NCBI GenBank assembly: GCA_963806185.1
Contig: CAWDXE010000006.1
Span: 32,001 to 96,000 of the forward strand
DNA from: an uncultured candidate division Zixibacteria bacterium
GTDB lineage: Bacteria > Zixibacteria > MSB-5A5 > GN15 > FEB-12
Direction: 5' to 3'
DNA: 64,000 nt
The position numbers and the translations under genes are program-made. This document shows, piece after piece, positions 1 through 43,856 of this stretch. Numbering within the stretch: the first letter of the stretch is position 1; every line of letters begins with the position of its first letter. The notes beneath the pieces are model-generated. The model did no database searches and had not been told where the DNA came from. It worked only from the letters and a program-made list of their open reading frames with translations.

Positions 1-243
1 GGATGTACGGGTGGTGGCGCCTGTTGCGTCAACACGACGGGCAACGTCGATTGCGGTGCCGACGACAACGTCGATATCGGCGACCTGACGGTGCTGATTG
101 ATCACATGTTCATATCGTTTACTCCGCTTTGCTGCATGGCGGAAGCCAATACTGACGACAATGCCGGGATCGATATCTCGGACCTGACCAGACTGATCGA
201 TCATTTGTTCATTTCGTTTTCGCCGCTGGCGACCTGTCCCTGA
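1..243 (+). CDS. 3' end of a protein with a C-terminal Cys-flanked dockerin-like domain (partial, not in ORF track)
   Basis: Frame 1 reads GCTGGGACCVNTTGNVDCGADDNVDIGDLTVLIDHMFISFTPLCCMAEANTDDNAGIDISDLTRLIDHLFISFSPLATCP-stop; duplicated Ca-binding-loop/helix motif. Confidence 0.85.
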   Translation, partial: GCTGGGACCVNTTGNVDCGADDNVDIGDLTVLIDHMFISFTPLCCMAEANTDDNAGIDISDLTRLIDHLFISFSPLATCP

Positions 244-299
244 ACCGGGTCAGCTTTTTCGATTACTCGTCTGAATCATTTGACCTATATTTCTATCCA

Positions 300-923
300 A
301 TGGATGAAAAACAGCTCATAGCGCGGGCCCAGTCCGGTGATTTTGCCGCATTCACCGAACTCATCAACACCCACAAGGGGCGGGTGTTTGGCCTGGTGCG
401 TCGATTGATCGGCAACGAACAGGACGCCGAGGATCTGGTGCAGGAGACGTTCCTGAAAGCGATCGACAATATCGATCGGTTCCGGGGTGAGGCCGCCTTC
501 GGCACCTGGCTGCACACGATCGCGCTCAATCAAGTGCGGGCTCATGCGGCGAAAGAGAAAGTGCGCGACCTTCGCCCGTTGGAAGATTATCTGCCAATCG
601 CTGACGCCGACGACGGGCATCAGCACGCGGCCGCGCACCTGTCGACGTGGCGTGATCCGCATGCCGAGCTGGAGGCTGACGAACTGCGGCAACGGCTCAA
701 TGCGGCTATCAATGAATTGCCGTACGCCTACCGCGAGGCTTTTGTACTCCGGTATTTCGACGAGTTGTCGGTGAAAGAGATCGCCGCGATTACGGACGAA
801 TCGGAAGCGGCGACCAAGTCAAGAATTCTCCGCGCTCGACTGGCGTTGCGCGAGAAACTGGCCAGACTGTTTGAGGATGTCGATGGAAAAGCGTTGTCCG
901 GATTACATTCAACAACTGAATGA
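300..923 (+). CDS. ECF-subfamily sigma-70 factor
   Basis: DAEDLVQETFLKA region 2, FGTWLHTIALN, region 4 LSVKEIA...KSRILRAR. Confidence 0.95.
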   Translation: MDEKQLIARAQSGDFAAFTELINTHKGRVFGLVRRLIGNEQDAEDLVQETFLKAIDNIDRFRGEAAFGTWLHTIALNQVRAHAAKEKVRDLRPLEDYLPIADADDGHQHAAAHLSTWRDPHAELEADELRQRLNAAINELPYAYREAFVLRYFDELSVKEIAAITDESEAATKSRILRARLALREKLARLFEDVDGKALSGLHSTTE

Positions 924-1140
924 TTATCTCGACGGTCAGGTGGACGCGTCGTTGTGCGCCGAGATTGAGCGGCATATCGGCGAGTGCGCCAACTGCAGGA
1001 TCATGGTCGATACGCTCAAGCAGACGGTGACGTTGTTTCGCGACGACAAGGCCGAAACGCTGCCTCCGGCGCTGGAGACCCGGTTGAATTCACTGCTCAA
1101 GGCGCGGTGGGAACAGAAATTCGGCAAGGCGGCGACATAG
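883..1140 (+). CDS. soluble zinc-finger (zf-HC2/ZAS) anti-sigma factor
   Basis: YLDG...HIGECANC (HxxxCxxC); overlaps sigma gene end; ATG 883 follows GAGGA; no TM segment. Confidence 0.9.
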   Translation: MEKRCPDYIQQLNDYLDGQVDASLCAEIERHIGECANCRIMVDTLKQTVTLFRDDKAETLPPALETRLNSLLKARWEQKFGKAAT

Positions 1141-1171
1141 CAATCCGGGCCGCCGCCTCACAATGGTTTTT

Positions 1172-3298
1172 TCAATGAACCCGTCTGACTTTCCCTACCT
1201 GCTCAAGAATGAACGCATATTCAAAGGCAATCTCCTCGAGTGCGGAATACCTGCCCGATGCCCCACCGTGACCGGCCCCCATGTTGGTCCGCAGGATGAG
1301 TACATTGGAGTCGGTCTTCATGGCGCGGAGCTTAGCCGTCCACTTGGTCCCCTCATAGTAACCGACGCGCGTGTCATTCAGCGACGGTTCAACCAGAAGC
1401 GCCGGGTACGTCTTCGCCGCGACGTTGTCATACGGTGAATACGAGAGCATGTATTCGAAGAAGTCCTTCTGGTTCGGATCCCCCCACTCTTCGTACTCAT
1501 TGGTCGTGAGCGGTATCGAGGCATCAAGCATCGTGTTTATCAGATCAACAAACGGTACCTGTGCCACGGCTGCCTTGAACAGGTCAGGACGCATGTTAAC
1601 GACGGTACCGATCAGCAAGCCGCCGGCCGATCCGCCGATGACCACAAGATGCTCTTTTGACGTGTACTTTTGCTTGATCAGGTACTCCGCCGTGGCAATG
1701 AAATCCGTGAAAGTGTTCTTCTTCTTGAACAGCTTGCCGTCGTCGTACCAGATTCGCCCCATCTCCCCGCCGCCGCGGATATGGGCAACGGCGAAGATAA
1801 CTCCGCGATTGAGCAGACTGAGTCGATTCGATGAAAAGTACGGATCAAGCGAGTAGCCATATGCACCGTAGCCGTCGAGCAGCAGCGGTGCACTCCCATC
1901 GAGACGTACTCCCTTCTTGTACACAAGGGAGATCGGCACTTTGGCGCCGTCGGACGCCGTGGCGAAGAGGCGCTTGCTCTGGTAATCATTCGGATTGTAC
2001 CCGCCGACCACCTCGCGCTGTTTTTTCAATTCCCGTTGCTTCGTCTTCATGTTGTAGTCGTAGACCGATGCAGGCGTCACAAATGAGGTGTAGTTGAAGC
2101 GCAGGACCGGCGAATTGAATTCGCGATTGTCCCCGCCGTCGACCGAGTACACCTGTTCGCGGAAGGTGATCGGCTCATACTTCTTCGCTGCAAAATCATA
2201 CACCCGCGCCGTCTGGTTACCCCTGGTGCGTTCCCACAGAACCATGTAATCGCGATACAGATCGACACCTTCCAGCATGACATCCTTGCGGTGCGGAACG
2301 ATCTCTTTCCAGTTGGCCCGTCCCGGACCGGCCACCGGCGCCTCCATCAGGCGGAAGTTGCGCGCGCTGTCGTTGGTGCGGATGTAGAATTTGTCCCCCC
2401 GGTGATTCACGTAGTACTCGACGTCCTTGCGGCGTGGCTCGATGACGGTAAACTTGCCCATCGGCGCATTGGCGTCGAGCACGTGCACCTCCGACGTAGT
2501 ACTGGTCGCGAGGGTGATGACCAAATAGGCGTTGCTGAGCGTTTTCCCCAGATCCAGCCAGAAGGTGCTGTCCGGTTCGTGGAAAACCTCAACGTCGGTC
2601 TTCGGGTCGGTGCCCAATTCGTGGCGGATAACTTTGTATGGACGCCAGGTCTGGTCGGCGATGACGTAGAAGACCGTCTTGTTGTCGTTGGCGAAGACCA
2701 GCGGGCCGGCGATGCTGTCGACTACTTCAGGGTACAGTTCACCGGTGGCGAGATTCTTGAAATGCAGGGAGTATCGTTCGTTCCCCTGATCATCGGTCGC
2801 ATACGCCAGCACCTGTTGATCGGGGCTCACTTCATTGGTGCCGATCGACATGAAATCCTTGCCTTCCGCCAGCTTGTTGACATCGAGGAGTACCTCCTCC
2901 GGAGCGTCAAGCGTCCCTTTCTTGCGGCAGTATACTTTGTATTGCTTCCCCGCCTCGTCGCGCGAGTAGTAGAAATAACCGCTGTCGCGAACCGGTACCG
3001 ACAGGTCGGTCTCCTTGATGCGCGCCACCATTTCCTTGTAGAGCGTATCGCGAAGATCCTTGGTCGACGCGGTCACGGAATCGGCGTAGGCGTTTTCCGC
3101 TTTGATGTACTCCAGCACGTCGGGATTCTCCCGGTTTCGAAACCAGGCGTAGTTGTCGACCATGACATGCCCGAATAGTGTGTCGATCTTCGGTTCGATT
3201 TTGGCCACCGGCGGCTTCGGAGCGGCGGAGACCGCCGCCATCGAGAATACCAGAACGCCCAGTGACAGCGCACCAGGCCATGAGAGTTTTCGCATCAT
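1172..3298 (-). CDS. ptrB: S9A peptidase, oligopeptidase B-like, with signal peptide
   Basis: GGSAGG nucleophile motif, KKNTFTDF, DTRV, HGGASGR; likely start ATG 3298/3295 before a hydrophobic signal (ORF track starts 3346). Confidence 0.9.
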   Translation of the reverse strand: MMRKLSWPGALSLGVLVFSMAAVSAAPKPPVAKIEPKIDTLFGHVMVDNYAWFRNRENPDVLEYIKAENAYADSVTASTKDLRDTLYKEMVARIKETDLSVPVRDSGYFYYSRDEAGKQYKVYCRKKGTLDAPEEVLLDVNKLAEGKDFMSIGTNEVSPDQQVLAYATDDQGNERYSLHFKNLATGELYPEVVDSIAGPLVFANDNKTVFYVIADQTWRPYKVIRHELGTDPKTDVEVFHEPDSTFWLDLGKTLSNAYLVITLATSTTSEVHVLDANAPMGKFTVIEPRRKDVEYYVNHRGDKFYIRTNDSARNFRLMEAPVAGPGRANWKEIVPHRKDVMLEGVDLYRDYMVLWERTRGNQTARVYDFAAKKYEPITFREQVYSVDGGDNREFNSPVLRFNYTSFVTPASVYDYNMKTKQRELKKQREVVGGYNPNDYQSKRLFATASDGAKVPISLVYKKGVRLDGSAPLLLDGYGAYGYSLDPYFSSNRLSLLNRGVIFAVAHIRGGGEMGRIWYDDGKLFKKKNTFTDFIATAEYLIKQKYTSKEHLVVIGGSAGGLLIGTVVNMRPDLFKAAVAQVPFVDLINTMLDASIPLTTNEYEEWGDPNQKDFFEYMLSYSPYDNVAAKTYPALLVEPSLNDTRVGYYEGTKWTAKLRAMKTDSNVLILRTNMGAGHGGASGRYSALEEIAFEYAFILEQVGKVRRVH

Positions 3299-3335
3299 CT
3301 GATTCCTGCTTCCATCTTCCCGGCCTCGGGTCGGG

Positions 3336-3755
3336 CTATTCTCCAATGATTTTAATGAGTACTCGTTTGCGACGGCGGCCGTCGAATTCGCCGTAAAAGA
3401 TCTGCTCCCACGGACCGAAATCGAGCTTGCCGTTGGTGATGGCCACCAGCACTTCGCGCCCCATGAGCTGACGTTTCATATGCGCGTCGGCGTTGTCCTC
3501 GCCGGTGTCGTTGTGCCGGTATCCGGAGACCGGTTCGTGCGGCGCCAGTTTCTCAAGCCACATGTCGTAGTCCTGGTGCAGGCCGGATTCGTCGTCATTG
3601 ATGAAGACCGATGCCGTGATATGCATGGCGTTGACCAGCACCAGCCCCTCTTTGACGCCGCTCTCCCGAAGACATTGCTCAACCTCGGGGGTGATATTCA
3701 CGAAACCACGACGACTGGGGATATTGAACCAGAGTTCTTTGCGAAATGATTTCAT
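3336..3755 (-). CDS. yjbQ: YjbQ/UPF0047 family protein
   Basis: [36 protein letters not shown] 3755 overlaps thpR stop (ATGA). Confidence 0.9.
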
Positions 3756-4309
3756 TCTTCCGATTGACCTTCGACCGTGAGTGGATAGGATTCCTCGACC
3801 TGATATATCGCACCACTGCTTGACAGCATGCTCGAATATAGGCAAAACTCGTTCACCCGGAAAGGGAGCGATTCATACAGGTTGTACTCGATAATATACC
3901 GGGCGAGGCGCGGGACATTGACGTCGCGAAGTCGGGCGATCGCTACATGCGGGGCGAATTTGCGACGGTCGCGCTCGATGCCGATATGCGAGAGCGTGGA
4001 TTCGATTTTATTGCGCAGGGCAATCAGCGGCTCGGACTTTTGCACGCCCACCCAGATCACTTCCGGCCTACCTTTCGGCGGGAAATGACCGACCCCTTTG
4101 AGGGTTAATTCAAACGGCGCGCGGCGGATTTCACCGAGCGCGGCCATGATGTCCTCAAAAACGCCCCCGTCGACCTCGCCTATGAAGCGCAGGGTGAGAT
4201 GCATTTGCACGGGCGTGAGCCAGCGCGCGCCGGGCACGCCGCCGCTGAGACGGGTGAGTTGTTCCTTGATATGCGTAGGTAGATCTATGGCGACAAAGAG
4301 GCGGTACAT
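3752..4309 (-). CDS. thpR: RNA 2',3'-cyclic phosphodiesterase (2H phosphoesterase)
   Basis: RLFVAI start, HLTLRFIG and PHVAIAR 2H motifs. Confidence 0.92.
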
Positions 4310-4330
4310 AGCGCAGTTTCTCCAGCCGAC

Positions 4331-4358
4331 AAGATAGGACTTGTAGGCGCGGAGTCAA
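4331..4358 (-). promoter_or_regulatory. possible sigma70 promoter of the thpR operon
   Basis: Minus strand TTGACT-N16-TATCTT just upstream of the 4309 start. Confidence 0.4.
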
Positions 4359-4441
4359 ACATCGTTGATTACACGAAATGGCGGATTGGGCCGTCGATGG
4401 ATTAAGGGCGGTACCAAGTATAGTCGGGTGGTAGTCCGATC

Positions 4442-5086
4442 ATGAAACAGCGATTTCTTGTGTGCACAGTTGTTCTGCTAGCCTCAGGGGCTTGGCAATG
4501 CGCTCATTTGGGCCCGCTTCATCAATCGAACGTGAGGCAGCGGGTCGCCATCGGCGAAGGTAATGTGGTTGGGCACATATCAACTGGCTCACCGGAGATT
4601 CCAGTCGTTGGCGCTGTTGTCCAATTAACTGACGATTCTTCGCGTATTACAGCATCTGACCAGACAGGCGACTTCATCTTTACATCCATCCCCCCAGGAC
4701 GCTATTCGCTTTCGATCTCACACCCAGAATACCAGGAGCGATTTTTCGAAGATGTAATCGTCAAAGCATCTTTAACAACAGAGTTGCGGACGGTGCTTCA
4801 GTTGACAAATCCAGAGAATTTCGGCCAAATCTCGGGGAGTATTTTCGACTCTGTGGCTAACGAGACGATTGTCGGGGCTGTTGTCACCGTGGAGAACACC
4901 ATGCTCAGCACCCGCTCGGATCTCCGCGGCAAGTTTATGTTACAACAGGTTCCGGTCGGGATTCATTCGCTCACTGTAACTCATCCAGAATTCCTGACTC
5001 AGACGATTGATTCAGTCTTCGTGCGAAGTGAACAAACGACAAGGGTGGACTGCTACCCCCAACCTAAACCACGGAGACAGGATTAG
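4442..5086 (+). CDS. secreted protein with two carboxypeptidase-regulatory-like domains
   Basis: Signal-like N-terminus; two G-x-I-x-G...GAVV...SDxxGxF...P(P/V)GxxxLxxxHP repeats. Confidence 0.75.
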   Translation: MKQRFLVCTVVLLASGAWQCAHLGPLHQSNVRQRVAIGEGNVVGHISTGSPEIPVVGAVVQLTDDSSRITASDQTGDFIFTSIPPGRYSLSISHPEYQERFFEDVIVKASLTTELRTVLQLTNPENFGQISGSIFDSVANETIVGAVVTVENTMLSTRSDLRGKFMLQQVPVGIHSLTVTHPEFLTQTIDSVFVRSEQTTRVDCYPQPKPRRQD

Positions 5087-5168
5087 AATTCGATTGTCGT
5101 ACACAACTGAAGTCCGCCGCCTCCACCGACCACCGCCCGTCAGTTCCTCAGATACGTCTGTCGAAAGC

Positions 5169-5799
5169 TTAACCCTTCAGGGCCGTCTCGATCGCTTTCA
5201 GCACCTCGTCTGATTCCGGCTGCGTCTTCGGCTCAAACCGCGCCACTACCTTCCCGTCGCGATCCAATAGGAACTTGCCGAAATTCCACTGAATCTCCCC
5301 CGGGAACGGTGATTTCTCGGTCAGATACTTGTACAGCGGGTGCTCGTCGTCCCCCTTCACCGAAATCTTGGCCATCATCGGAAAGGAGACATCGTACGTC
5401 GACGTACAAAACTTCAGAATCTCTTCATTGGTGCCCGGCTCCTGCCCGCCGAAATTGTTGGCCGGGAAACCGATGATCACCAGCCCCTTGTCTTTGTACT
5501 TCTGGTACAGCTCTTCCAGCCCGGCATACTGCGGGGTATTGCCGCACTTGCTGGCGACATTCAGGAGCAGGACGACTTTCCCTTTGAAGTCGGACAAGGT
5601 GGAGTCGTTGCCGTGGATGGTCTTGAACTTAATTGTCGCGGTAGTCATCAGCCGTCATCTTGCCCTCCTGTGTGGCCGGGGTCGTCGCATTTTTTGCGCC
5701 GTGTTTGGCATGATCTGCCGTCTGTTCATCCGTGCGCGCCATGGTGGTCGCCGATGCTATCACCAACAACGTCAAAATAATTTTTGCGCGATGCTTCAC
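5169..5799 (-). CDS. Cys-type glutathione peroxidase, probably with signal peptide; one frameshift near 5638
   Basis: NVASKCG, GFPANNFGGQEPG, WNFGKFL. An upstream frame encodes a signal peptide (GTG ~5799, VKHRAKIILTLLVIASA); removing one base gives ...MTADDYRTIKFKTIHG. Confidence 0.85.
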
Positions 5800-5948
5800 T
5801 TCAGTTTTTCCCTTTCGCCTTTTGCGCGGTGACTTCCCGGACTGTAAATGGTTAGTTACCAACGATAACAGTGGGAACCCCGGGATAAGTTCCTGCCACA
5901 GCGGGCATTTGTCGCCAATGTGGATACAAATTTCCGCGAAGATTCTTC

Positions 5949-5977
5949 TTGCATAGCGGCGGGGGCGTCTCTATTTT
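5949..5977 (+). promoter_or_regulatory. possible sigma70 promoter for the FN3 genes
   Basis: TTGCAT-N17-TATTTT; would favour the TTG 6052 start. Confidence 0.4.
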
Positions 5978-6051
5978 CCCTGCGAGCTAAAGGCTGCTAC
6001 TCGCACCTTACTTCTTTTTTTCTGCGTACTGGCTTACAGTTTGGGTTGGGA

Positions 6052-6648
6052 TTGAAAAACATAGCATTTGTTGTGCTGATGCTGTTGAGTCAGCCTGTCT
6101 GGGCGGCTATCTCGACGGTCACCTCGATTACAGTTCGTTGGACGGCGCCGGGCGACGATGGCAAGACGGGTCGCGCGACGACGTATGATTTGCGTTATTC
6201 GAAAACGCCTATCACCGACGCCAACTGGACCAGCGCCACTCAGGCCGTCAGCGAGCCGCGCCCGGCTACCGCGGGCACTGTCCAGTCGTGCACGATCTCA
6301 GGCTTGGTGCCTACCACTACCTATTATTTCCGTCTCAAAACAATCGATGACAGGGGGAATGCTTCGAACCTGTCCAACCAGGCCACTGCGGCCACCTGTG
6401 GCGGAAGCTGCACCGGTGTGGTCGGCAATTGCGATTGTAGTGCTGATGGGTCGGTCGATATCCTCGATCTGTCGGTGCTGACAGCGTATCTCTTTCAAAA
6501 CGTACAGCCCACTTGTTGGTGCATCTATGAAGCCAACATCGATAACTCCGCTCCGACCGCCTCGGGGCCGACCATCGACATCAACGATCTGACCATGTTT
6601 ATCGATTACCTCTTCGGTAGGTTCACACCGCTGCAGACTTGTAAGTAG
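6052..6648 (+). CDS. secreted FN3 plus Cys-flanked dockerin-like protein
   Basis: Signal peptide from TTG 6052 (ORF track starts 5920); WTAPGDDG FN3 module; dockerin at 6397-6648 (GNCDCSADGSVDILDL...EANID...DINDLT...LQTCK). Confidence 0.8.
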   Translation: MKNIAFVVLMLLSQPVWAAISTVTSITVRWTAPGDDGKTGRATTYDLRYSKTPITDANWTSATQAVSEPRPATAGTVQSCTISGLVPTTTYYFRLKTIDDRGNASNLSNQATAATCGGSCTGVVGNCDCSADGSVDILDLSVLTAYLFQNVQPTCWCIYEANIDNSAPTASGPTIDINDLTMFIDYLFGRFTPLQTCK

Positions 6649-6774
6649 CTCCTCCTGATTTCTTTCTGCACAATCATCCTTTTTCCGCACAGATGAATCT
6701 CCTCTCGACGATGGTGCCTGACGATTCGGCCGCTTCCCGCCGTTGACGTTGGGGCACTTAGCAATTCCTCCCTG

Positions 6775-9153
6775 TTGGGCCCGGCATTTGTATTAATGCC
6801 ACCCGATTGTCTCGAAAAGGAGTGGCTTAAAAGGAGATTTCTCCATGGATTATCGCCGAATTTTCTCCAACATGGAAGCTTTCCCCCGATTCACGGTTTG
6901 TCCCGCATATTCACATTGTTAGTGCTTGGCGTCATCTGTGCCTCCACCGTGACGGCGGCGCCCAACTCGGTCGTCCTCACCTGGACGGCTCCGGGTGATG
7001 ACGGCAACACCGGCACGGCAACGACCTACGACATCCGGTATTCGACTGCGACGATCACCGCCGCCAACTGGGCCTCGGCGACGCAGGTCACCGGTGAAAC
7101 CGCGCCGAAGGTCGCGGGCAGTGCCGAGAGCTTTACCGTCAACAACCTCACCCCGAGCACGACATACTATTTCGCCATCAAGGCAGCCGATGAGGCCGGC
7201 AACTGGTCGACCCTCTCCAACATCATCACCAAGAGCACGACCGCCGAAACCACGCCGCCGTCGGCCGTCGCAAACCTGACCACCAACGCTTCTACCAACA
7301 GCTCCGTTTCCCTCACCTGGAGTTCACCGGGTGACGACGGCAGCTCCGGTACGGCGACTACCTACGACATCCGGTATTCGACTGCGACGATCACCGACGC
7401 CAACTGGGCGTCGGCGACTCAGGCAACCGGTGAGACGGCACCAAAGGTCAGCGGCAGCACGGAAACATTTGTAATCACCGGCCTGAACCCGAGTACCACC
7501 TATTATTTTGCTATCAAGACAGCTGACGAAGTGCCCAACTGGTCGGCTCTCTCCAACGTCACCAGCCGCGCTACTTCCGCCGAGTCCACAGCGCCGTCGG
7601 CCGTAGCCAATCTCGGCGCCGGCAGTGAAACGGTAAGTTCTGTTACGCTTACCTGGACCTCGCCTGGCGATGACGGCAACACCGGCACGGCGACCACGTA
7701 CGATGTCCGCTACTCGACAGCCTCGATCACTGCCGCCAACTTTGCCAGTGCCACCGCGGCGACTGGCGAACCGGCTCCTAAGGTGGCGGGCAGTGCCGAG
7801 ACATTTGTCGTCAGCGGCCTCAATTCGAATGCCCTGTACTACTTTGCCGTTAAGACGGCCGATGAAGTTCCGAACTGGTCCAGCATCTCCAACGTCGTCA
7901 CTCGCACGACGTTGACGGAAACGACTGCACCGTCGGCGGTGACCTCGCTGGCGACTGTCAGTGTGACGTCGAACGCCGTGACCCTTTCCTGGACAGCGCC
8001 GGGTGACGACGCCAGTACCGGTACGGCGACCACCTATGACCTTCGTTATTCTACGTCAAATATCACCGCCGGCAATTTTGCCAGTGCCACGCAGGTGACC
8101 GGCGAACCGGCGCCGAAGGCCGCCGGCGGTTCCGAGACCTTCACCGTCACCGGCCTTAGTATCAGTACGACGTATTACTTCGCGCTGAAGACGGCTGACG
8201 AGGTCCCCAACTGGTCGAGCATGTCCAATGTACCTTCAGCGACTACGCAGGGTGACGTCACTCCGCCGTCGCCGATTCTCGACCTTGGCGCGGTTGAGGG
8301 TACGGCCGCAGGTGAAGTGATCCTCGGTTGGACCGCTCCCGGCGATGACGGCAATACCGGCACGGCCCGTTTCTACCTGATAAAGTATGCCACCGACAGC
8401 ATCACGCCGGAGTCCTGGGTGACCGCGGACATTTTCAATGATCCGCCGTCCCCGGTACAGGCCGGCGAGCATCAGTCAGTCTCATTGTACGGTCTGGTGC
8501 CGGCGCAAAAGTATTATGTCGCGATGGAGGCGTATGACGAAAACGCCTATCCGTCAGGCATGTCAAACGTCGCGTCGGCCGTGGCCGGCGAGGGCATTGT
8601 AGCTAACTCTGACTCCGGCGAGATCAAGATGGTCTCGCCTGCGAATCAGGTGTTGCACAGTTCCCGCCCGATTCTGAAGATTGAGAATATCGACACGGCC
8701 AACACCAATGACTACACCTTTGCCGTGTCCGCCGATTCCACCTTTGAGTCGGTGGTGTCAATGGCCACTGTCGTCGAAGAACTCGGCAGCACAACGTGCT
8801 GGGAAGTGCCGGTTCGGTTGACTCCGAATCAGCTCTACTTCTGGCGGGTCGACGCCGAGCCGGGCGGCGCCAGTGCCATTGCCTCGTTCATGGTACAACC
8901 GACCACGCACGTTTACCCCAACCCCTACAAGGCGTCCACTGGGAGCTCGGCGACCTTCGCCGAGGTCCCCACTGGATCGCAGATAACGATCACCTCGGTC
9001 TCCGGCGAAACTGTACGGCAGTTCGCCAGCATCGAAAGCGATCAAGTGGCATGGGATGGATTAAACGACTCGGGCAGTCCGGTTGCGTCGGGTGTCTATC
9101 TCTGGTATCTCGATGGTGGCAGTGCCAAGGGGAAAATTGTCGTCACTCGCTGA
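6775..9153 (+). CDS. surface protein with five FN3 (WTAPGDDG-type) repeats and a FlgD-Ig/T9SS-like C-terminal domain; true start uncertain
   Basis: W(T/S)(A/S)PGDD motifs at 6982, 7318, 7654, 7990, 8329; C-terminal VYPNP...WDGLNDSGSPVASGVY...GKIVVTR. Confidence 0.85.
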   Translation: MGPAFVLMPPDCLEKEWLKRRFLHGLSPNFLQHGSFPPIHGLSRIFTLLVLGVICASTVTAAPNSVVLTWTAPGDDGNTGTATTYDIRYSTATITAANWASATQVTGETAPKVAGSAESFTVNNLTPSTTYYFAIKAADEAGNWSTLSNIITKSTTAETTPPSAVANLTTNASTNSSVSLTWSSPGDDGSSGTATTYDIRYSTATITDANWASATQATGETAPKVSGSTETFVITGLNPSTTYYFAIKTADEVPNWSALSNVTSRATSAESTAPSAVANLGAGSETVSSVTLTWTSPGDDGNTGTATTYDVRYSTASITAANFASATAATGEPAPKVAGSAETFVVSGLNSNALYYFAVKTADEVPNWSSISNVVTRTTLTETTAPSAVTSLATVSVTSNAVTLSWTAPGDDASTGTATTYDLRYSTSNITAGNFASATQVTGEPAPKAAGGSETFTVTGLSISTTYYFALKTADEVPNWSSMSNVPSATTQGDVTPPSPILDLGAVEGTAAGEVILGWTAPGDDGNTGTARFYLIKYATDSITPESWVTADIFNDPPSPVQAGEHQSVSLYGLVPAQKYYVAMEAYDENAYPSGMSNVASAVAGEGIVANSDSGEIKMVSPANQVLHSSRPILKIENIDTANTNDYTFAVSADSTFESVVSMATVVEELGSTTCWEVPVRLTPNQLYFWRVDAEPGGASAIASFMVQPTTHVYPNPYKASTGSSATFAEVPTGSQITITSVSGETVRQFASIESDQVAWDGLNDSGSPVASGVYLWYLDGGSAKGKIVVTR
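6982..8600 (+). repeat. intragenic tandem FN3 repeats, 336-nt period
   Basis: Spacings 336, 336, 336, 339 nt; identical 37-mer at 7024-7060 and 7360-7396. Confidence 0.85.
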
Positions 9154-9255
9154 TTCCAACATCTACGTAAGGCCAACGATTACTCGGTCGACCCTGTGGT
9201 CGCGTTTTTCTATTTGTGGGAAGGTCTGAATTCGGAACGGCAGACGCCATCCGCG

Positions 9256-10968: not shown

Positions 10969-10978
10969 GGTTGCACCT

Positions 10979-32579: not shown

Positions 32580-33343
32580 CCACACCCCTGGCCCAGCTTC
32601 CCATCCTCGTCTACCACTACTTTGGCGTTGATCGCACGGTGCAGACCGGCATCAAGCCGGAGGACATTGCATATATCACGCCGGTTCAGCTTTTCCGCAC
32701 GCATCTCGAATTCCTCGCCAACGAAGGGTATCAGCCCGTATCGTTCCAGCACGTTGCGGAATCGCTCACGTCGACCACCGGCCTTCCGTCCAAGCCAATG
32801 GTGATAACCATCGACGACGGCCATCAGAGCGTTGCCCGCTTTGCCCTACCGTTGCTCGCCGAGTTCGGCTTTTCATCAGAACTGTTTGTCATACCCTCGC
32901 GCGTGGGTCAGCCGGGGTACCTGGACTGGGATACGCTCGGCAAGCTGTCGCAATCGGGTATGGCGGTTCAGTCGCACGGCCTCACTCATCGCTATTTGAC
33001 AAAACTTACGCCGGAAGAAGTCCGCTACGAATTGAGCGAATCCAAACGGCTCATCGACCTGAACATCGGTAAACAAACACTCGCGCTTGCCGTGCCGATG
33101 GGACGGTACCCCGAAGGTCTCAATCGCGAACTCTCCGATGTCGGCTACAAAATCGGCTGTACGTCGACGTATGGCCTCAACCGGAATCTCACTTCGTTGC
33201 TGGCGCTCGAGCGCATCATGATCAAAGCCCCCAACGATACGGTCGAAGCTCTCGGCAGATTGCTGAACGACACCACCGCGCTCGCCTGGCAGATGCGCCT
33301 GCGCAATCTGGCCAAGCGCTGGCGCAACCGCCTGATCGGCTGA
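32576..33343 (+). CDS. polysaccharide deacetylase (NodB-like)
   Basis: ILVYH, TIDDG, SHGLTH, PMG. Confidence 0.88.
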   Translation: MTTPLAQLPILVYHYFGVDRTVQTGIKPEDIAYITPVQLFRTHLEFLANEGYQPVSFQHVAESLTSTTGLPSKPMVITIDDGHQSVARFALPLLAEFGFSSELFVIPSRVGQPGYLDWDTLGKLSQSGMAVQSHGLTHRYLTKLTPEEVRYELSESKRLIDLNIGKQTLALAVPMGRYPEGLNRELSDVGYKIGCTSTYGLNRNLTSLLALERIMIKAPNDTVEALGRLLNDTTALAWQMRLRNLAKRWRNRLIG

Positions 33344-33459
33344 ACGCCGCTTCCTTTTTCATTGTGTAAGCTCGTGCGGCGTGCTACCTTATAAATACAA
33401 CCGGCAGGCATTTCGTTTGAGCACGGGCATCGAGCTGCCGGTCTTTCATTATCAGGGAG

Positions 33460-34752: not shown

Positions 34753-34918
34753 ACCCGTACCGGGCGATCTCTTGCTTGACGGCGACACGAATTTTGCGCA
34801 CATTCTCCCAGCCGGAACGCGCGCATCGTCCGGCGTTTCGGCCAATACGCAGGATTTGCCGGAAGACGCTCCCCTTTTCGTATGATTCCGGACTGCGCCA
34901 GGTTAAGGATCGTCTTTA

Positions 34919-36778: not shown

Positions 36779-36855
36779 ACCTTTCAATTTCGCTCAGCGT
36801 AGACAACGTCGAGGGCCGACGTACGCCGTTTGGTATGTCTTGGTAGGGAGAATCT

Positions 36856-37866
36856 TCAATAGCCGGAAGGATGGCGCAAACGGGCGATACGGCCCCAGTC
36901 GGCGCGTGCCAGTCGGCACTGTTTCATCCACGGACGGTCCCCGCGCAGGATATTTCGATTGAGCATCAAGGCGTCCTTGGTTCCCGGGGCAAGTGGCAGA
37001 TGATTCTTCCCGGGCTGCACACCGAGGCCGAGGCGGAAACCGATCTCCTGTGTGACTTGCAAAACCACGGGCGAGTAGTTGCCGTTGGGATACGAAATGA
37101 TCTCCGGCGTCTGTCCGGTCAAGTGCTGCAGCGCCACCTGATTCTGCTCGATTTGGTGGCGAATGTCACCAGGACCGTAAATCGTGAGGATGGCGTGATC
37201 GAGCGTGTGATTGCCGATATGCACGAGCGGATGGCCGGCGAACTCTCGTAGTTCGGCCGGCGTAAACGGGCGATCCAGTTCCCCCTGTGGTCGCAGCGCC
37301 CCTACACCAAATTCGGCCACCAGTGCCCGCTCGATTTCATCGTGGCGACGCACTTTCATTTGATTCTGTTCCAGCCGTATGGCCGACACTGAGGCTCCCG
37401 CTTTGCGCCGTTCGCGGTAAAGCACGTCCCACCAGAAACAACGATTGTTCACAATGTGATTCGACGAAATGAAGAACACCGCCGGAATGGTGTACTCGCG
37501 CAAAATCCCCAGTACTCGCACATTGTCATGATAGCTGTCGTCAAAGGTCAGGAGGACATACCGGCCGTCGTCAGGCAGGCCGCGAAGCACCTGGTCCGGC
37601 GAGACGAATTGATAGCCGGCCTGTAAGTAGTATTCGAGAAACTCCCGGAAGCGGGTCATCAGCACCCCTTCGAGAGGATCGACTGTCGGGTCCTGCATTT
37701 CTGCTTCGTCCACAAACAGCTTGTGGAAGAGAAATGACAATAACCCCGGACCGTCGCCGAAAAACCTCAGATGCTCCAGAGCAAGTGATTGACTGATCGA
37801 TTTGATTACAGAGGTAATTACAGACGTCACGACCGCCGGCTCTCCCTCAAAAAAAGGAAGTGGCAA
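36856..37866 (-). CDS. polysaccharide deacetylase (start uncertain)
   Basis: LTFDD, FWWD, GNHTLDH, SYPNG. Confidence 0.85.
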   Translation of the reverse strand: MPLPFFEGEPAVVTSVITSVIKSISQSLALEHLRFFGDGPGLLSFLFHKLFVDEAEMQDPTVDPLEGVLMTRFREFLEYYLQAGYQFVSPDQVLRGLPDDGRYVLLTFDDSYHDNVRVLGILREYTIPAVFFISSNHIVNNRCFWWDVLYRERRKAGASVSAIRLEQNQMKVRRHDEIERALVAEFGVGALRPQGELDRPFTPAELREFAGHPLVHIGNHTLDHAILTIYGPGDIRHQIEQNQVALQHLTGQTPEIISYPNGNYSPVVLQVTQEIGFRLGLGVQPGKNHLPLAPGTKDALMLNRNILRGDRPWMKQCRLARADWGRIARLRHPSGY

Positions 37867-37919
37867 ACTCTCCAGCCCACCGCCGGAAAGGTAGCCGATT
37901 TACTCGAAAACACAACCGC

Positions 37920-39056
37920 TTATTTGCCTTCAGACCCGTTCAGACGATGCCCGGTTACGGCCAACTTCTCGAAGAGAATTGTCGCGATACGCCCTGCTGT
38001 GTGACCATCCCACAAGTCGGGTATCCGCCCCTTCTTTGCTCTGCCCTGAAGGATTTCTTCCACCGCCGGCAGAACCTTGGCCGGATCGGGACCCGTCAGC
38101 ACATTGCTCCCGACATCCACCGTAACCGGCCGCTCCGTCGACTCACGCATGGTTACGCACGGCACCTGGAGATAGGTCGTCTCTTCCTGCACGCCGCCCG
38201 AATCGGTCAGAACGAAGCGGCAGGTCGATTGCAGGCGCAGAAATTCCAGATACCCCAGCGGCTCGACTACCTTCAGCGTGTGCGCGTCAACCGTGTCCCA
38301 GAGGCCAAGACGGGTCAGTTCCTTCTGCGTGCGCGGATGGCACGGGAAGACAAACGGAATCCGCTGGGCCAACTGCTTCACCATCTGCCAGATTTCCCTG
38401 AGCCGTTCGGGATTATCGACATTCGACGGACGGTGCAGCGTCATCACTGCAAAGCCCTGTTCGGTTAGTCCGAGGTCTTTCAGAATCGTCGTCTGCCGAC
38501 ATGCGGCCAGACTCGAAGTAAGGGAGTCAATCATGATATTGCCGGTAAAGAAGATTCGCTCCGACGGAACCCCTTCCAGCTGGAGATGCTTGAGCCCCGA
38601 GGGCTCCGTGACAAACAGGTAGTCCGACAATCTGTCGGTTACAATACGATTAATTTCCTCCGGCATCGCCGCGTCAAATGAGCGCAGCCCCGCTTCCACA
38701 TGAGCGATTGGTATTTGCAGTTTGGCCGCGACAATCGACGCCGCCAGGGTGGAATTGACGTCACCGAAAACGATGATCAGGTCCGGGCGGTCGGCCATGA
38801 GCTGACCCTCCAGCGCTACCATAATCCTCGCGGTCTGCTCGGCGTGCGTTCCCGAACCGACGCCCAGATATACGTCCGGCTTGGCCATACCGAGCTGATC
38901 GAAAAACAACGTCGACAGCTTGGGATCATAATGCTGTCCCGTGTGCACGAGCAAAGGAGCAAACCGCTCGGGATATCTCTTTAATTCAGCCAACAGCGGG
39001 GCAGCTTTCATGAAATTCGGACGGGCGCCAACAACCAGCACAAGCTTCTTAATCAC
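37920..39056 (-). CDS. wecB: UDP-N-acetylglucosamine 2-epimerase (non-hydrolysing)
   Basis: GARPNFMK, HTGQHYD, HVEAGLRS, TDSGGVQEE. Confidence 0.95.
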   Translation of the reverse strand: MIKKLVLVVGARPNFMKAAPLLAELKRYPERFAPLLVHTGQHYDPKLSTLFFDQLGMAKPDVYLGVGSGTHAEQTARIMVALEGQLMADRPDLIIVFGDVNSTLAASIVAAKLQIPIAHVEAGLRSFDAAMPEEINRIVTDRLSDYLFVTEPSGLKHLQLEGVPSERIFFTGNIMIDSLTSSLAACRQTTILKDLGLTEQGFAVMTLHRPSNVDNPERLREIWQMVKQLAQRIPFVFPCHPRTQKELTRLGLWDTVDAHTLKVVEPLGYLEFLRLQSTCRFVLTDSGGVQEETTYLQVPCVTMRESTERPVTVDVGSNVLTGPDPAKVLPAVEEILQGRAKKGRIPDLWDGHTAGRIATILFEKLAVTGHRLNGSEGK

Positions 39057-39272
39057 AATACGTTACTCCCATAATCCTGCGTAAACATCTTCGGTGAGGG
39101 GTCATCCCAAGCCGCCGCAAGGTCCGAAAAAATCAAGCCTTTTGCAACCGCTTTCCCGACTCATCACTCCCCCAGTATCGGCACCCCGGGGAACATTCGT
39201 GAACAGATCGATTCCTCCGCTATTTGCCCGCCGCCACACCCCCGGCAAACTCTGTATCCCGTTGCCCCCCAG

Positions 39273-39300
39273 CTAAGAACCGTCACCTTTCCGCCGATAT
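39273..39300 (+). promoter_or_regulatory. sigma28-like promoter upstream of the chain-length gene
   Basis: CTAAG-N15-GCCGATAT, overlapping a TATAAT at 39298. Confidence 0.5.
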
Positions 39301-39410
39301 AATGTGTATAACCGGTTAAGGTACTTGAATACACTATTTGAGCACAGTATCTTGGGCACCGGACTGGCCCCCGGTCACCTGATTATAACCATAGCGGAGA
39401 TTCTGGACAC

Positions 39411-40934
39411 ATGTCTACTAGCGAAAGTCGAGGCGTAGAAATTGGCGATATCATTGGCGTTCTCAAAAAACGCAAGTGGCTGATCATCCTCCCCTGGATT
39501 CTGGTCGCGGCGGTCGTGGCCGCCGGCTCCTATATGCTGGCGCCCAAATATCAATCCTTCGCTATTGTCTCGATCGACCCCAAAGTCCGGTTCTCCTCCG
39601 ACCTCCAGCGCCTCCTCGGCATGGACGACAACTATCGCCAGCAGTCGACTGCCGCCGCGCGGGCCGACGAATTGCGGGGCGTCTACAACGAGATTACCTC
39701 CACCTATTACATGGGCAAGCTGGCGGAGAAACTCAAACTTCTCGACAATCCCGGCCTCATTTCGCGGGCCGAAAAACTCACTCTTAAATCTCCGGGCGTG
39801 CCGCTCGATCAGATCAAACTCTACCTCCTCCAGGATGACTTGCAGGAACGGGTTTCAGTCACCTTTGCCGCCGCCAGCCAGATTAAGATCAACGTTATCT
39901 CCACCAATCCGGCCAACGCCCGCGACGTCGCCAATGCGATGGCGGAAATATTTGTCGATGAGCGGGTGAAGCAGGAACTTTCCACCATCCGTTCGTCGCA
40001 GGATTTCTCCGACGTTCAGTTGCAGAAGTATGAATCCCAACTTGAAGATAAGGTCCGCGAAAAGACCGAATTCGAGCGCCGGTATCTGCAGACCAACCAG
40101 GAATCTCCGACTACGTCGGAAAAGAACCGGTTGGACATTCAGTCCGAAATCGACCACACCAACGATGACATTACCGAGGCCCAGCAGACCGAACGGACGA
40201 TCATCGCTCAGCTCCAGTCAACGCCCAGCGCCCCCATCGACCGCCTCACCCTGCGGGAATCCGAGGATTTGCGCCGCTACAAGTCCGAGCTGGATGGACT
40301 CCTGGGCTCGCTGGCGGACATGATGACCAAGTACACCTGGAGCGACCCGCAAATCCTGAACAACAAGGTGAAACAGGATGGTTTGATACGGAAGATCGCC
40401 GGCGAGAACAGCCGACTGGTCGATGCCCAGTATCCGACCGCCGATGAAAAGACCCGCACTACGCTCACCAGCCTGTTCAATACGCGTACGAATCTCGATT
40501 ACCTCTATTCCAAGAAGACACACTTGCTCGGAACAATCGAAGATCTCAAGAGTCACTTCAATCGGATCCCCGAATACCAGTCCACGCTCGATCGGTTGAA
40601 TCGCGAGATCGCTCAGTTGACGACGCTCCGCGACAAATTCAAAGCCCAGCAGGAAAGCTCCACCATCTCGCAAGCCCTCCTCCAGGATATCTCGACCCCC
40701 AAGTACAAGGTCGTCGAACCGGCCAAGCTGGCGATGGCTCCCTTCTCCCCGAATCGCATGAAGATTATCCTGATGGGTATCATGCTTGGACTTGTCGTCG
40801 GCGGAGCGGCCACAATGCTGGTGGAATTGCTGGATAAATCATTCAAGAAGGTCGAAGACGTCGAGCACTACCTCGACTTGACCGTACTGGGCGTGACGCC
40901 CGAGATTGAATATCTGAAACGCGTGAACCGATAG
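39411..40934 (+). CDS. polysaccharide co-polymerase / chain-length determinant (Wzz/GumC-like, no fused kinase)
   Basis: Two TM ends flanking a long coiled coil; VVEPA...PFSPNR, LDKSFK...LTVLGVTP. Confidence 0.85.
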   Translation: MSTSESRGVEIGDIIGVLKKRKWLIILPWILVAAVVAAGSYMLAPKYQSFAIVSIDPKVRFSSDLQRLLGMDDNYRQQSTAAARADELRGVYNEITSTYYMGKLAEKLKLLDNPGLISRAEKLTLKSPGVPLDQIKLYLLQDDLQERVSVTFAAASQIKINVISTNPANARDVANAMAEIFVDERVKQELSTIRSSQDFSDVQLQKYESQLEDKVREKTEFERRYLQTNQESPTTSEKNRLDIQSEIDHTNDDITEAQQTERTIIAQLQSTPSAPIDRLTLRESEDLRRYKSELDGLLGSLADMMTKYTWSDPQILNNKVKQDGLIRKIAGENSRLVDAQYPTADEKTRTTLTSLFNTRTNLDYLYSKKTHLLGTIEDLKSHFNRIPEYQSTLDRLNREIAQLTTLRDKFKAQQESSTISQALLQDISTPKYKVVEPAKLAMAPFSPNRMKIILMGIMLGLVVGGAATMLVELLDKSFKKVEDVEHYLDLTVLGVTPEIEYLKRVNR

Positions 40935-40984
40935 CGTCCAACCTCGGCCCGGTCTCTACCGCCGGCGTCGGGTGAGCAGAACGT

Positions 40985-41785
40985 CTATTTCCACCCTTTC
41001 GCTCGATTCCAGTAGAAGAGCGCCGTCCCTTCGGGGTTGGCGACTAATTCGCGAAGTTCGGCAAATGCAATGTCGCACTGGGCATTCGTAGCCAACCGGC
41101 GCGCCACCATCTCGGATCGCCCGGTCTCCGCCACCCCGATCAGATTCTCCACCCACAGCGTATAGTATTCGGTACCCGCCCAGTGCACCTCGGGGTGAAG
41201 ACTCAATTCTACCCGTTCAAATCCTGCGCGCTTGAGCAACGGAAAGAGTTTCTTCCCGATCAGAGCATCGCCGCCGAGTTGCGTCTGCAGCACGGCAAAC
41301 TGCTCCCAGACGAAATTGAAAGTCGGGCAATCAGGCCAGAAGGCATTGATCAGGATATTGTTTTCCTGCGTGCAGAATCGCCCGCCCGGCTTCAACACGC
41401 GGTGCGCTTCGCGGACTACCTCACCCGGCTCGCCGACGTGCTCAAGCAAATACCGGCAATACACCAGGTCAAAGGTCGCGTCGGCAAACGGCAGCTTGTG
41501 TCCGTCGCCGCGCACGAACCGGAGGTTTTCCGCAGTGGTATGCACCTTGGCCAATTGCTGCGGGGAATACTCCACACCCACCGCGTACCCGTTGGATGCT
41601 TTTCGAGCCACTGCCTCGGCGAGTATCCCCAGGCCGCTGCCTATTTCAAGCACCTGGTCGGACGGACGGACGTCGAGATACGAGATAAACGCATCATTCG
41701 TCATGGAATTCAGTTTGGCCAGGCGTTCTTGTTCGGTCGGATCTGTTCCGTGTATATATTGTGCTGCCATACGCTCTTTTCCCAC
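40985..41785 (-). CDS. class I SAM-dependent methyltransferase
   Basis: LEIGSGLG, LPFADATFD, RVLKPGG. Confidence 0.9.
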   Translation of the reverse strand: MGKERMAAQYIHGTDPTEQERLAKLNSMTNDAFISYLDVRPSDQVLEIGSGLGILAEAVARKASNGYAVGVEYSPQQLAKVHTTAENLRFVRGDGHKLPFADATFDLVYCRYLLEHVGEPGEVVREAHRVLKPGGRFCTQENNILINAFWPDCPTFNFVWEQFAVLQTQLGGDALIGKKLFPLLKRAGFERVELSLHPEVHWAGTEYYTLWVENLIGVAETGRSEMVARRLATNAQCDIAFAELRELVANPEGTALFYWNRAKGWK

Positions 41786-41822
41786 GATATGATCGACTGT
41801 CGTCGTGTTTGGTTTGTGCCGG

Positions 41823-43856
41823 TTACGGACAGGCCGGCAACGGCCGGAAGCTGAGAAACAGATGATCCACCATCGCCGTAAGATCCTGAATATCCAGATT
41901 CAGGGGCCAGTCACCGTCGATATTCGCCTCCGCCGGACAGGTCGAAGGTCGAACTGAAATATACAGGTCATCAACCAACTGCTGCAAGTCGGCAATGTCG
42001 ACGGTGTTCAGGGAATCCTCATCGATGTTCCCCACCGTCCCCACACAACAGACCGCCGCGTTGCGATAGAAATCCAGTCCGCCGTCCTCTTCCCCGATGA
42101 GCAGATCACTGTCGCTATCCCCGTCCAGATCAGCAAGAAGCAACGCGAGCCGCGAGCCTTCATCCGATCCCGGGATCTTGTCGGATTGCGCTACTAATGT
42201 CAGGGAATCGGGAAAGCCGCTGACCGAGATGTTGCGAAACCAGGTTACACCGCTCACCGCCGAACCCAGGAGCAGATCCTTGCGGCCGTCGTGGTCCCAG
42301 TCTACAACCGTCGGTATAGTGAACTCGCGGGGAGCCTGTCGAAGTAGTCGCGAAGTCCTAAGACGGAGTACGGGCGCTTCGGCCGTCCCGGTGTTCTCAT
42401 ACAGCAGCACATTCGCCTGGCCGTTGAAATCCCATTCTCCGACCACCAAATCGATCCGGGCGTCGCCGTCAAAATCCATCGGCACCGGCACCGCCAATTG
42501 ATCCACGCGGATCGATCCCAGCGAGTCGGTGACGAGGGTGGGAATGAATGCACTTTTCGAACCGTCGTTGCGATAGTAAACAATTCGACCATTGAGATTC
42601 CCTACCAGCAGGTCCAGGTCGCCGTCGTTATCCCAGTCAACCAGCGCGGGAGCCGCATCGTAGCCGACATTAATATCTGCAAACGCCGTGTCTACCAGAT
42701 CAAGCATCGGTTTGGATGCCGTACCGGTGTTCTCCATGTACGCCAGCGCCCCGTTCTGTCCTCCTACCAGCAGGTCGATGTCGCCATCGTCGTCAAGATC
42801 GCCCGCCGTCGGCATTGACGCCGACCCAACGTCGATGGTCTTCAGATACTGCGAATCCGCCTGCACGTAATTCGGCGCCTGCAGCGTGCCGTCATTGCGG
42901 TACAACCGAAGCGTATACAAGTCTGCCACATTCGCCACTCCGGACAGCATCTCCGCCTTCCCGTCGCCATCAAGATCGCCAAAACTTACATGATTGAACC
43001 CCAGCGTCGGACTGGGTAGAAAGAACTCCGTCAGCCAGGTCAGATCGGAGTGAAATCGATCGCCCTCATTCCGAAAACAGTACAGGCTGTTGCTGAAAAT
43101 GTCTCCCCAGAACAGATCGTAGTCGCCGTCAGTGTCGTAGTCGGAGAACGTGATGCTGTTGAACCCGTGCAGTGGATTGTCCCCCCGATTCGGGCCTCGC
43201 CCTCCGGACGGCGATGGCCCACCCCCAGGAATTGCCAGCACACTGTCATACACGTCGGTGACGAACGTGAATATCGGCTCCTGCGGTGTCCCGATATTGC
43301 GATAGAAATTGAGATTCCCGCCGATCCCGCCCAGAAAGAAGTCGAGATCGCCATCGGCGTCGATATCCACAAACGCCGGCGTGATGTTGGTCGTGGTGGT
43401 CAGACCGCCAAAGACAGAATCAACCAGATCAAAGATCACTTCTCCCGGTATGGAACTGTTGCGATAGAACCTGGCGTGGCCGTGCCGCGAATCGCAGAGA
43501 AGGTCAACGTCGCCGTCGCCATCAATATCACTGAGCGTGTACCAGGTGCCGATATCGATTCCACCCAGCCGCCCGCTCTGCACTTGCCACTTTGCTTGTT
43601 GGGTCGTGCCCACATTCCTCAGATATAAGAGTCGCCCTTCAAACTGGCCGATCAACAGGTCGAGCCGTCCGTCGTTGTCGAGATCGACCAGTTCCGGTTT
43701 GGGGTTGTTGAGCCCGCCCAAAAAGGGAAGGTCAAGCAGAGATCCGTGATCACGCACAGGAAACGGCGTGTATTCGCGGACGAATTGCCCGCTCGCCCCG
43801 GCTGAAAGACCGAGACTCAACGCCGGAAACACTATGACACGAACTAGTAGATGCAT
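41823..43856 (-). CDS. secreted FG-GAP/VCBS-repeat protein with a C-terminal Cys-flanked dockerin-like domain
   Basis: Signal peptide; about ten DxDxDGxxDL repeats; dockerin at 41823-42050. Confidence 0.88.
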   Translation of the reverse strand: MHLLVRVIVFPALSLGLSAGASGQFVREYTPFPVRDHGSLLDLPFLGGLNNPKPELVDLDNDGRLDLLIGQFEGRLLYLRNVGTTQQAKWQVQSGRLGGIDIGTWYTLSDIDGDGDVDLLCDSRHGHARFYRNSSIPGEVIFDLVDSVFGGLTTTTNITPAFVDIDADGDLDFFLGGIGGNLNFYRNIGTPQEPIFTFVTDVYDSVLAIPGGGPSPSGGRGPNRGDNPLHGFNSITFSDYDTDGDYDLFWGDIFSNSLYCFRNEGDRFHSDLTWLTEFFLPSPTLGFNHVSFGDLDGDGKAEMLSGVANVADLYTLRLYRNDGTLQAPNYVQADSQYLKTIDVGSASMPTAGDLDDDGDIDLLVGGQNGALAYMENTGTASKPMLDLVDTAFADINVGYDAAPALVDWDNDGDLDLLVGNLNGRIVYYRNDGSKSAFIPTLVTDSLGSIRVDQLAVPVPMDFDGDARIDLVVGEWDFNGQANVLLYENTGTAEAPVLRLRTSRLLRQAPREFTIPTVVDWDHDGRKDLLLGSAVSGVTWFRNISVSGFPDSLTLVAQSDKIPGSDEGSRLALLLADLDGDSDSDLLIGEEDGGLDFYRNAAVCCVGTVGNIDEDSLNTVDIADLQQLVDDLYISVRPSTCPAEANIDGDWPLNLDIQDLTAMVDHLFLSFRPLPACP

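Follow-up and report, generated by a model that had tools for sequence, protein, structure and literature searches.

Introduction

Cohesin–dockerin assembly has been studied mainly in clostridial and ruminococcal cellulosomes. Here we describe a cysteine-rich dockerin variant, likely stapled by disulfides, that tags the C-termini of secreted proteins in an uncultured candidate division Zixibacteria bacterium (assembly GCA_963806185.1); three copies of this stapled tag are encoded in a 64,000-nucleotide stretch of its DNA, here called the window (contig CAWDXE010000006.1, positions 32,001 to 96,000, forward strand). The genome is 82% complete and is labelled G000, with contigs G000:C1, C4, C6 and C7. 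The closest dockerins for comparison are the type I domains of clostridial and ruminococcal cellulosomes (PF00404; PDB 4fl4, 4uyq, 5nrk, 4dh2 and 2ccl). Like these, the tag has two calcium-loop/helix repeats and a short joining helix (TM-score ~0.7, root-mean-square deviation (rmsd) ~2), is mostly C-terminal on secreted proteins, and carries near-identical helices 1 and 3 with a genome-specific helix code. Unlike these, it has four to six paired cysteines and a more hydrophobic helix face (DIxDLxxLIDxLF), and loop insertions push the window copies under the Pfam cut-off. The host also differs from cellulosome hosts in having type IX secretion system (T9SS) components, and no glycoside hydrolase family was found at E 1e-8 in the 78 of 150 tag carriers scanned, which cover the carriers of the bacterium's own genome in part.

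In the main text of PMC3821032, where the word 'cysteine' is absent, contacts of residues just before loop 1 with the C-terminus are described as stabilizing dockerins and aiding cohesin binding. The head and terminal cysteines of the stapled tag lie at the same two ends; in contrast to that clasp, theirs would be covalent, would lie at position -5 rather than -1 to -3, and would be accompanied by two more pairs. A cellulosome-like structure, inferred from genomes and untested, has been proposed for Ca. Stygibacter of the Cloacimonadota (PMC8542988). There too, as far as the accessible text goes, signal-peptide proteins including peptidases end in dockerins, and a cohesin protein has a conserved C-terminal domain. 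That system has one large tandem-cohesin scaffoldin and few enzymes, whereas in the family studied here each genome tags ~90 proteins, a small adaptor with one cohesin and a T9SS tag is conserved family-wide, and the dockerins have cysteine staples, which the accessible text on Ca. Stygibacter does not mention.

We also compared the tag with the T9SS type A C-terminal domain (CTD; PF18962, TIGR04183), which occupies the same position on the same cargo classes and is nearly exclusive with it. The tag gives no PF18962 or TIGR04183 match, and its predicted structure has helices and calcium loops, not a beta-sandwich. In the literature, a 2025 review (PMC12484212) mentions disulfides for engineered systems only, in the part of it that was accessible, and dockerin and cohesin are unmentioned in PMC4454575. 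Our search found no paper linking Zixibacteria and dockerin and, at the level of abstracts with few subscription papers and no supplements, no description of a natural disulfide-stapled bacterial dockerin.

Results

Cysteines of the tag are gained and lost in pairs

We numbered the cysteines after copy 1 of the window: Cys1 and Cys2 in the head (positions 4 and 5), Cys3 in loop 1 (14), Cys4 and Cys5 in the linker (40 and 41), and Cys7 at the end (75), with Cys6 at position 47 of other copies. A first-pass annotation of the window had proposed from three copies that Cys3 and Cys4 are gained and lost together. Three profile iterations over the six-frame open reading frames (ORFs) of the genome yielded 101 tag domains in 94 ORFs; 95 are full length, and 62 of these have Cys2 and neither alternative loop-2 cysteine. 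Of the 62, 47 carry Cys3 together with Cys4, 12 carry neither, and 3 are discordant (p 5e-10). Other metagenome proteins gave 93 domains with both, 32 with neither and 3 mixed (128 domains from 139 matches outside the own genome). The corresponding counts for 31 relative genomes were 53, 132 and 4 (n = 189); this sample was drawn from the 4–8 best matches of each genome and from their neighbours at the retrieved loci, and so leans towards cysteine-rich copies. After pooling and removal of duplicates, 371 copies from many genomes comprised 188 with both, 174 with neither and 9 that were discordant.

Shared ancestry was accounted for with a tree built without the columns of Cys1, Cys3, Cys4 and Cys5. 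On this tree Cys3 and Cys4 each change 38 times and their joint state only 44 times, so that at least 32 of 38 changes are shared, while in control cysteine pairs the joint state changes nearly as often as the separate ones (46 of 48, 59 of 63 and 58 of 63), with only 2–5 changes shared. Cys3–Cys4 is also the top coupling among 2,628 column pairs (z 8.8, weighted and background-corrected), followed by couplings between mates of helix 1 and helix 3. The covariation proposed from three copies thus holds in all three sets and on the cysteine-free tree of 371 copies.

A second covarying pair, beyond the one first noticed, joins the first cysteine of the N-terminal CC to the second linker cysteine. 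Cys1 and Cys5 are both present in 347 of the 371 copies, both absent in 9 and mixed in 15; on the tree their joint state changes 19 times, against 17 and 10 changes taken separately, and their coupling ranks 41st. The terminal Cys7 is kept in 358 of 371 copies, and the near-constant pair Cys2–Cys7 ranks 150th. Among the 31 own copies lacking Cys2, 26 have an alternative partner cysteine at head position -2 or at loop-2 position 4 or 6, and the three own copies with two alternative cysteines also have two tail cysteines. Loop-2 position 4 would be the internal-symmetry mate of Cys3, as we read the repeat. With the loop-2 position-2 cysteine excluded, the cysteine count is even in 81 of 95 own domains. 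That excluded residue ('EANC'), present in 36 of 62 own copies and 15 of 128 elsewhere, was dismissed as a candidate for a disulfide, since it shows no covariation within its class and alternates with V, I or T. No pairing partner for Cys6 was found by covariation. Because the cysteines come and go in pairs, they are likely to form disulfide staples.

The three window copies illustrate both states. Copy 1 (13-243, + strand; 76 residues and a stop codon) has all three putative pairs, with cysteine codons at 22, 25, 52, 130, 133 and 235 that would pair as 22/133, 25/235 and 52/130. Copy 2 (6400-6648, +) has a head cysteine (6409), a loop-1 cysteine (6436), two linker cysteines (6514 and 6520) and a terminal one (6640); Cys1 is missing in register, and an additional cysteine stands at loop-1 position 2 (6430). 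Copy 3 (42056-41823, - strand; codons 42050, 42047, 41939 and 41831) retains 42050/41939 and 42047/41831 and lacks both members of the optional pair, Cys3 and Cys4. The shared C-termini described in the first-pass annotation are all present in the window sequence, and its reading of a loop-1 and an extra linker cysteine in copies 1 and 2, with neither in copy 3, is correct.

The tag is a member of the dockerin family

A model of copy 1 of the tag predicted by AlphaFold2 on a 47-sequence alignment (A1, also used as a search profile) had a predicted local distance difference test score (pLDDT) of 93.6, with helices at 22–34, 42–45 and 55–67 and with residues 8 and 74 forming a beta-bridge that brings the termini together. 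The top Foldseek matches were all clostridial or ruminococcal dockerins (probability 0.9–0.99, TM-score ~0.7, rmsd ~2), and a sequence search of solved structures returned one weak dockerin match (4fl4, E 0.044). Of the 28 matches to PF00404 in the genome, 20 attained its gathering score; stapled copies are among these, but the three window copies are not. In the nearest Atlas clusters 70% and 79% of members carry this domain, and the few members with a label are mostly Zixiibacteriota. Asp or Asn occupies the calcium-loop ligand positions 11, 13, 21, 24, 46, 48, 54 and 57 in 334–371 of the 371 copies, with loop-2 position 5 variable. Mates on helix 1 and helix 3 are identical in 73–99% of copies at most face positions, and they co-vary. 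The tag thus has the sequence and fold features of a dockerin that can be tested computationally, with calcium and cohesin binding predicted. We conclude that it is a dockerin-family variant and not a new kind of signal.

A family-wide stapled form in a phylum with dockerins

A profile from the three window copies gave 107 domain rows in the genome. The strength of these matches is far above chance, since dozens more copies were found at E 1e-20 to 1e-31 with that profile. Judged by the last domain, the tag is C-terminal in 88 of the 94 ORFs, near the N-terminus in 5 and internal in 1; a signal-peptide-like start, by a crude heuristic, was detected in 75 of the 94 and in 528 of 1,093 long frames. 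Profile A1 matched 9,053 cluster representatives at E 0.001 and 3,340 at 1e-10, and among its best 150 matches 135 of 158 domains end within 8 residues of the C-terminus. Stapled dockerins placed directly after the signal peptide occur in ORFs at G000:C7:699042-705318, C6:144096 and C7:886346. Two of these ORFs, C7:699042 and C7:703444, keep Cys3, lack both linker cysteines and have extra cysteines upstream, which suggests rewired pairs.

All 45 genomes of the bacterium's own family have A1 matches at E 1e-10, with at least 25 copies in 44 of them (counting was capped at 47). Outside the family, 16 of 75 phylum genomes have matches, mostly 1–4 copies each, while Pfam dockerins are present in 119 of 121 genomes of the phylum. 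Dockerin tagging therefore spans the phylum, with the stapled form as a trait of one family, so that the suggested lineage specificity of the tag applies to its staples and not to dockerins as such. Cys1–Cys5 and Cys2–Cys7 are general across the family; the pair noticed at first, Cys3–Cys4, prevails in only 8 of the 28 genomes of an rpoB tree, and these 8 belong to a single clade of 11 (G000 is absent from this tree, as rpoB was not found in its assembly, and G107 was left out for its partial gene).

Cohesin partners and the helix code

Sixteen cohesin-like domains were detected in 15 ORFs of the genome, of which 7 have a T9SS CTD and 6 have the tag. At most two such domains were detected per open frame; several of these genes are frameshifted and the genome is incomplete. 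One small gene, CohA (G000:C7:884798-885637), encodes a signal peptide, a cohesin domain and a T9SS CTD, and is predicted to be at the cell surface. Its model (pLDDT 93.2) has cohesins as top Foldseek matches (E 6e-7 to 4e-5), while its match to Pfam Cohesin (E 7e-4) is below cut-off and a sequence search of solved structures reached a cohesin at E 0.32. All 45 family genomes have CohA, 41 of them with one match only, and some match to it occurs in 108 of 121 genomes. CohB (G000:C1:385498-386205; L051:1999-2703) consists of a signal peptide and a cohesin-like domain alone and follows a TPR-repeat gene. Neither Pfam nor NCBIfam gave a match for it. By hhalign it is homologous to CohA (96.9%, E 1.8e-10); it is highly conserved (60–67% to the query among 20 aligned) and present in 45 of 45 family genomes. 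Against solved structures CohB returned ribosomal S12 chains only (E 0.03 or worse), which we took as chance.

In every genome the two dockerin helices share a sequence of that genome's own. At helix positions, identity is 0.71 for copies of one genome and 0.45 for copies of different genomes, compared with 0.34 and 0.26 at loop positions. Codon sharing between the two repeats is not in excess (0.47 versus 0.43–0.45), and gene conversion between them was rejected on this ground. Dual binding of dockerins is familiar from the cellulosome field. A genome-specific code on both helices is as expected from selection for one shared partner in two binding orientations. Dockerin helix distance between genomes correlates with CohA distance (rho 0.56; 0.52 with rpoB distance removed), more strongly than in any of 300 rpoB column samples (maximum 0.43), and across 16 genomes dockerin divergence follows CohA more than CohB (partial correlation 0.57 versus 0.28). 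At the level of single residues, CohA position 78 could not be shown to co-evolve with the optional cysteine pair (one branch, sign test p = 1), and no clean CohA residue emerged when its columns were scanned against a crude dockerin type.

Export, cargo and putative oxidation machinery

The genome encodes SprA and PorU, each as a single gene, and ten PorV-family matches above cut-off; 51 ORFs carry a T9SS CTD. Only one of the 94 tagged ORFs also has a CTD, a near-exclusion that is partly expected because both modules are terminal, and 31 of the 94 share a cargo segment with CTD proteins, including a pair of genes with FN3 domains in the window. With GldN undetected, in a search whose control gave no match either, the set of ten PorV-family members, one SprA and one PorU possibly represents a T9SS that has many shuttles and whose ring is divergent or missing. 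Two secretin-like genes score below the GspD cut-off. The ten PorV-family matches are located on G000:C4 and other contigs.

Families among the scanned carriers include FG-GAP, SBBP/DUF7948, TSP3, peptidases M6 and M23, CAP, LamG, beta-lactamase-like proteins and propellers, and about half of the scanned carriers have no family. A 604-residue frame at G000:C1:1048988-1050649 (L113, L114), directly after a dockerin-tagged gene, encodes VKOR fused to two DsbA-like thioredoxin domains, and this VKOR-DsbA fusion is a plausible oxidase for the tag disulfides.

Discussion

A docking model and its alternatives

On balance we think it probable that as many as three disulfides link the paired cysteines, with the tag docking ~90 signal-peptide proteins on cohesins, most likely CohA. 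What the analysis shows is the sequence pattern, the pairwise gain and loss of cysteines, the mostly C-terminal position, the near-exclusion with the CTD, and the presence of SprA, PorU and PorV, of VKOR-DsbA and of cohesin-like genes; the dockerin and cohesin folds are predicted. Cargo would enter the periplasm by Sec, where VKOR-DsbA would oxidize Cys2–Cys7, making the known N-to-C clasp of dockerins covalent, together with the family-wide Cys1–Cys5 and the optional Cys3–Cys4, the pair noticed at first. The calcium loops and two near-identical helices would then display a genome-specific hydrophobic face that binds CohA, itself exported and anchored via SprA, PorV and PorU. The cargo itself could travel piggyback on CohA, could leave by a secretin pathway and dock once outside, or could reside in the periplasm. 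A specific form of the first route is that the stapled dockerin acts as an indirect export signal: ~90 CTD-less proteins would bind CohA in the periplasm and pass the SprA pore together with it, the disulfides locking the plug during transit and for life outside the cell. Type IX secretion would in that case gain a plug-and-socket adaptor with a code that drifts from genome to genome. We hold this form to be rather unlikely.

Several observations weigh against the docking model. For the staples, well-supported branches give 5 independent Cys3/Cys4 pairs, of which 3.9 change the same way and 0 the opposite way (p 0.125), a test underpowered because just 5 such pairs lie on strongly supported branches. 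For Cys1/Cys5, the second cysteine is unchanged in 5.1 of 7 independent pairs, and covariation cannot test Cys2–Cys7 because that pair is nearly invariant. For the fold, the Foldseek dockerin matches have E-values of only 0.06–0.3, none reaching 0.001, and all three window copies fall short of the Pfam Dockerin_1 cut-off (copy 2 gives E 0.013 and 16.1 bits against a cut-off of 22.9). For the partner, the CohA–dockerin correlation is largely one lineage split (independent-pair test p = 1), and the 'binding face' columns were picked after inspection of the alignment, with 6 of 500 random column sets equalling them. Eleven genomes with 2–24 dockerin matches have no CohA match, and six tagged ORFs hold a cohesin-like domain of their own, so that some cohesin-like domains may be spacers. 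For the export machinery, GldN had no match in 13 genomes, where the search control likewise gave none.

The tag could instead be read by a receptor other than a cohesin, such as a PorV-like shuttle or a secretin-type exporter, and would then be a direct second export signal. Tag and CTD are nearly exclusive on the same cargo types, the ten PorV-family matches and the two sub-threshold secretin-like genes offer candidates, and the genome-specific helix code requires one shared partner of any kind. Against such a receptor, the fold is that of cohesin-binding dockerins with two-fold symmetric helices, partners with a cohesin fold are conserved, mostly as one copy per genome, and genomes with 0, 0 and 2 dockerin matches are also without both conserved cohesins. 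We consider it improbable.

Quite improbable, too, is a main partner other than surface CohA, be it CohB or the large scaffolds combining cohesin, dockerin and CTD, possibly in the periplasm. CohB is homologous to CohA, more conserved than it and found in every family genome, and 7 of the 15 ORFs with cohesin-like domains have a CTD. The closer correlation of dockerin divergence with CohA speaks against this choice, as do the lack of a Pfam match for CohB and its small variation between genomes, given a dockerin code that varies strongly.

Metal binding, for example of zinc, in place of disulfides would suit the two CC motifs and the four near-constant cysteines (1, 2, 5 and 7), which could make a four-cysteine site. 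We find this very unlikely, as the carriers have signal peptides, the genome encodes a VKOR-DsbA fusion, cysteines disappear two at a time, and where the head CC is missing the terminal cysteine has a single alternative partner. It is scarcely credible that joint cysteine presence is an artefact of shared ancestry or DNA-level homogenization: the dominant state does follow the species tree (one clade, 11 of 28 genomes) and the short-domain tree has few well-supported branches, yet both states occur, concordantly, inside single genomes, shared changes (at least 32 of 38) far outnumber the 2–5 of control pairs, and a codon-level excess between repeats is absent.

In an uncultured phylum with T9SS components, dockerin tags thus stand on tens to ~100 exported proteins per genome, and one family has added paired cysteines to dockerins that standard models partly miss. 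The surprise is limited because the overall design has already been proposed for a neighbouring phylum (PMC8542988). If the docking model is true, the receptor for most of the lineage's exported proteome is identified, and its export route becomes directly testable with two small recombinant domains. Protein engineering would likewise gain many naturally disulfide-stabilized, possibly orthogonal plug-socket pairs.

Genes around the tag in the window

The gene of copy 1 encodes a signal-peptide protein and has its start in the stop-to-stop frame G000:C6:31236-32243, upstream of the window; its cargo is a secreted protein with no family assigned by a domain scan that covered its tail only. The gene of copy 2 (5920..6648, +) encodes a signal peptide, one FN3 domain and the tag, and it probably begins closer to 6046-6079 than to the GTG listed for it at 5920. 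Side by side with it, a paralogue with five FN3 repeats (6775..9153, +), 57% identical to the copy 2 cargo over 79 residues, ends in a T9SS-CTD-like segment in place of the dockerin (TIGR04183, 23 bits, at cut-off). By domain scan, the gene of copy 3 (41823..43856, -) encodes a signal peptide, an FG-GAP repeat region and the tag.

A giant protein with Ig/PKD repeats is encoded on the - strand, its main frame (55881..64000; 3,064 residues stop to stop) extending past the window. A cohesin-like domain at the end of this frame, from ~56198, scores below cut-off (Cohesin E 0.027) and is cut by a frameshift at ~55990. The frame that follows encodes an internal dockerin (55345..55566, -), and after a second frameshift at ~55070 a third frame encodes a T9SS type A CTD (54741..55082, -; PF18962, E 3e-11) that probably ends the giant protein, giving the order cohesin-like domain, dockerin, unknown domain, T9SS CTD. 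The frameshifts may be assembly errors, because an intact paralogue has the same dockerin and CTD in one frame. The internal dockerin has an asymmetric helix sequence, a long linker with CxxC, and no head or terminal staple cysteine. It matched A1 at E 0.1 only and gave two partial matches at ~1e-3 with a broad profile, which bears out the earlier view that the tag is distinct from the giant protein's dockerin. Elsewhere in the genome, four similar internal dockerins occur in CTD-bearing ORFs. Several cohesin/CTD genes are split by apparent frameshifts (window 54741-64000, G000:C6:186000-199500 and G000:C7:618500-622500), which again may be assembly errors.

Outside the window, at the locus that holds CohB, a small secreted protein (L051:3858-4499, -) has a PEP motif, a hydrophobic stretch and a basic end and is presumably PEP-CTERM-like. 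After copy 1, the region 300-1140 encodes an extracytoplasmic function (ECF) sigma factor, and the small ORF downstream of it has a Cys/His motif and is one that we take to be anti-sigma-factor-like. Between copies 2 and 3 (9256-40934) lies a long run of genes resembling those for surface-polysaccharide biosynthesis and export, of which the Wzz-like gene at 39411-40934 is the sole member checked by domain scan.

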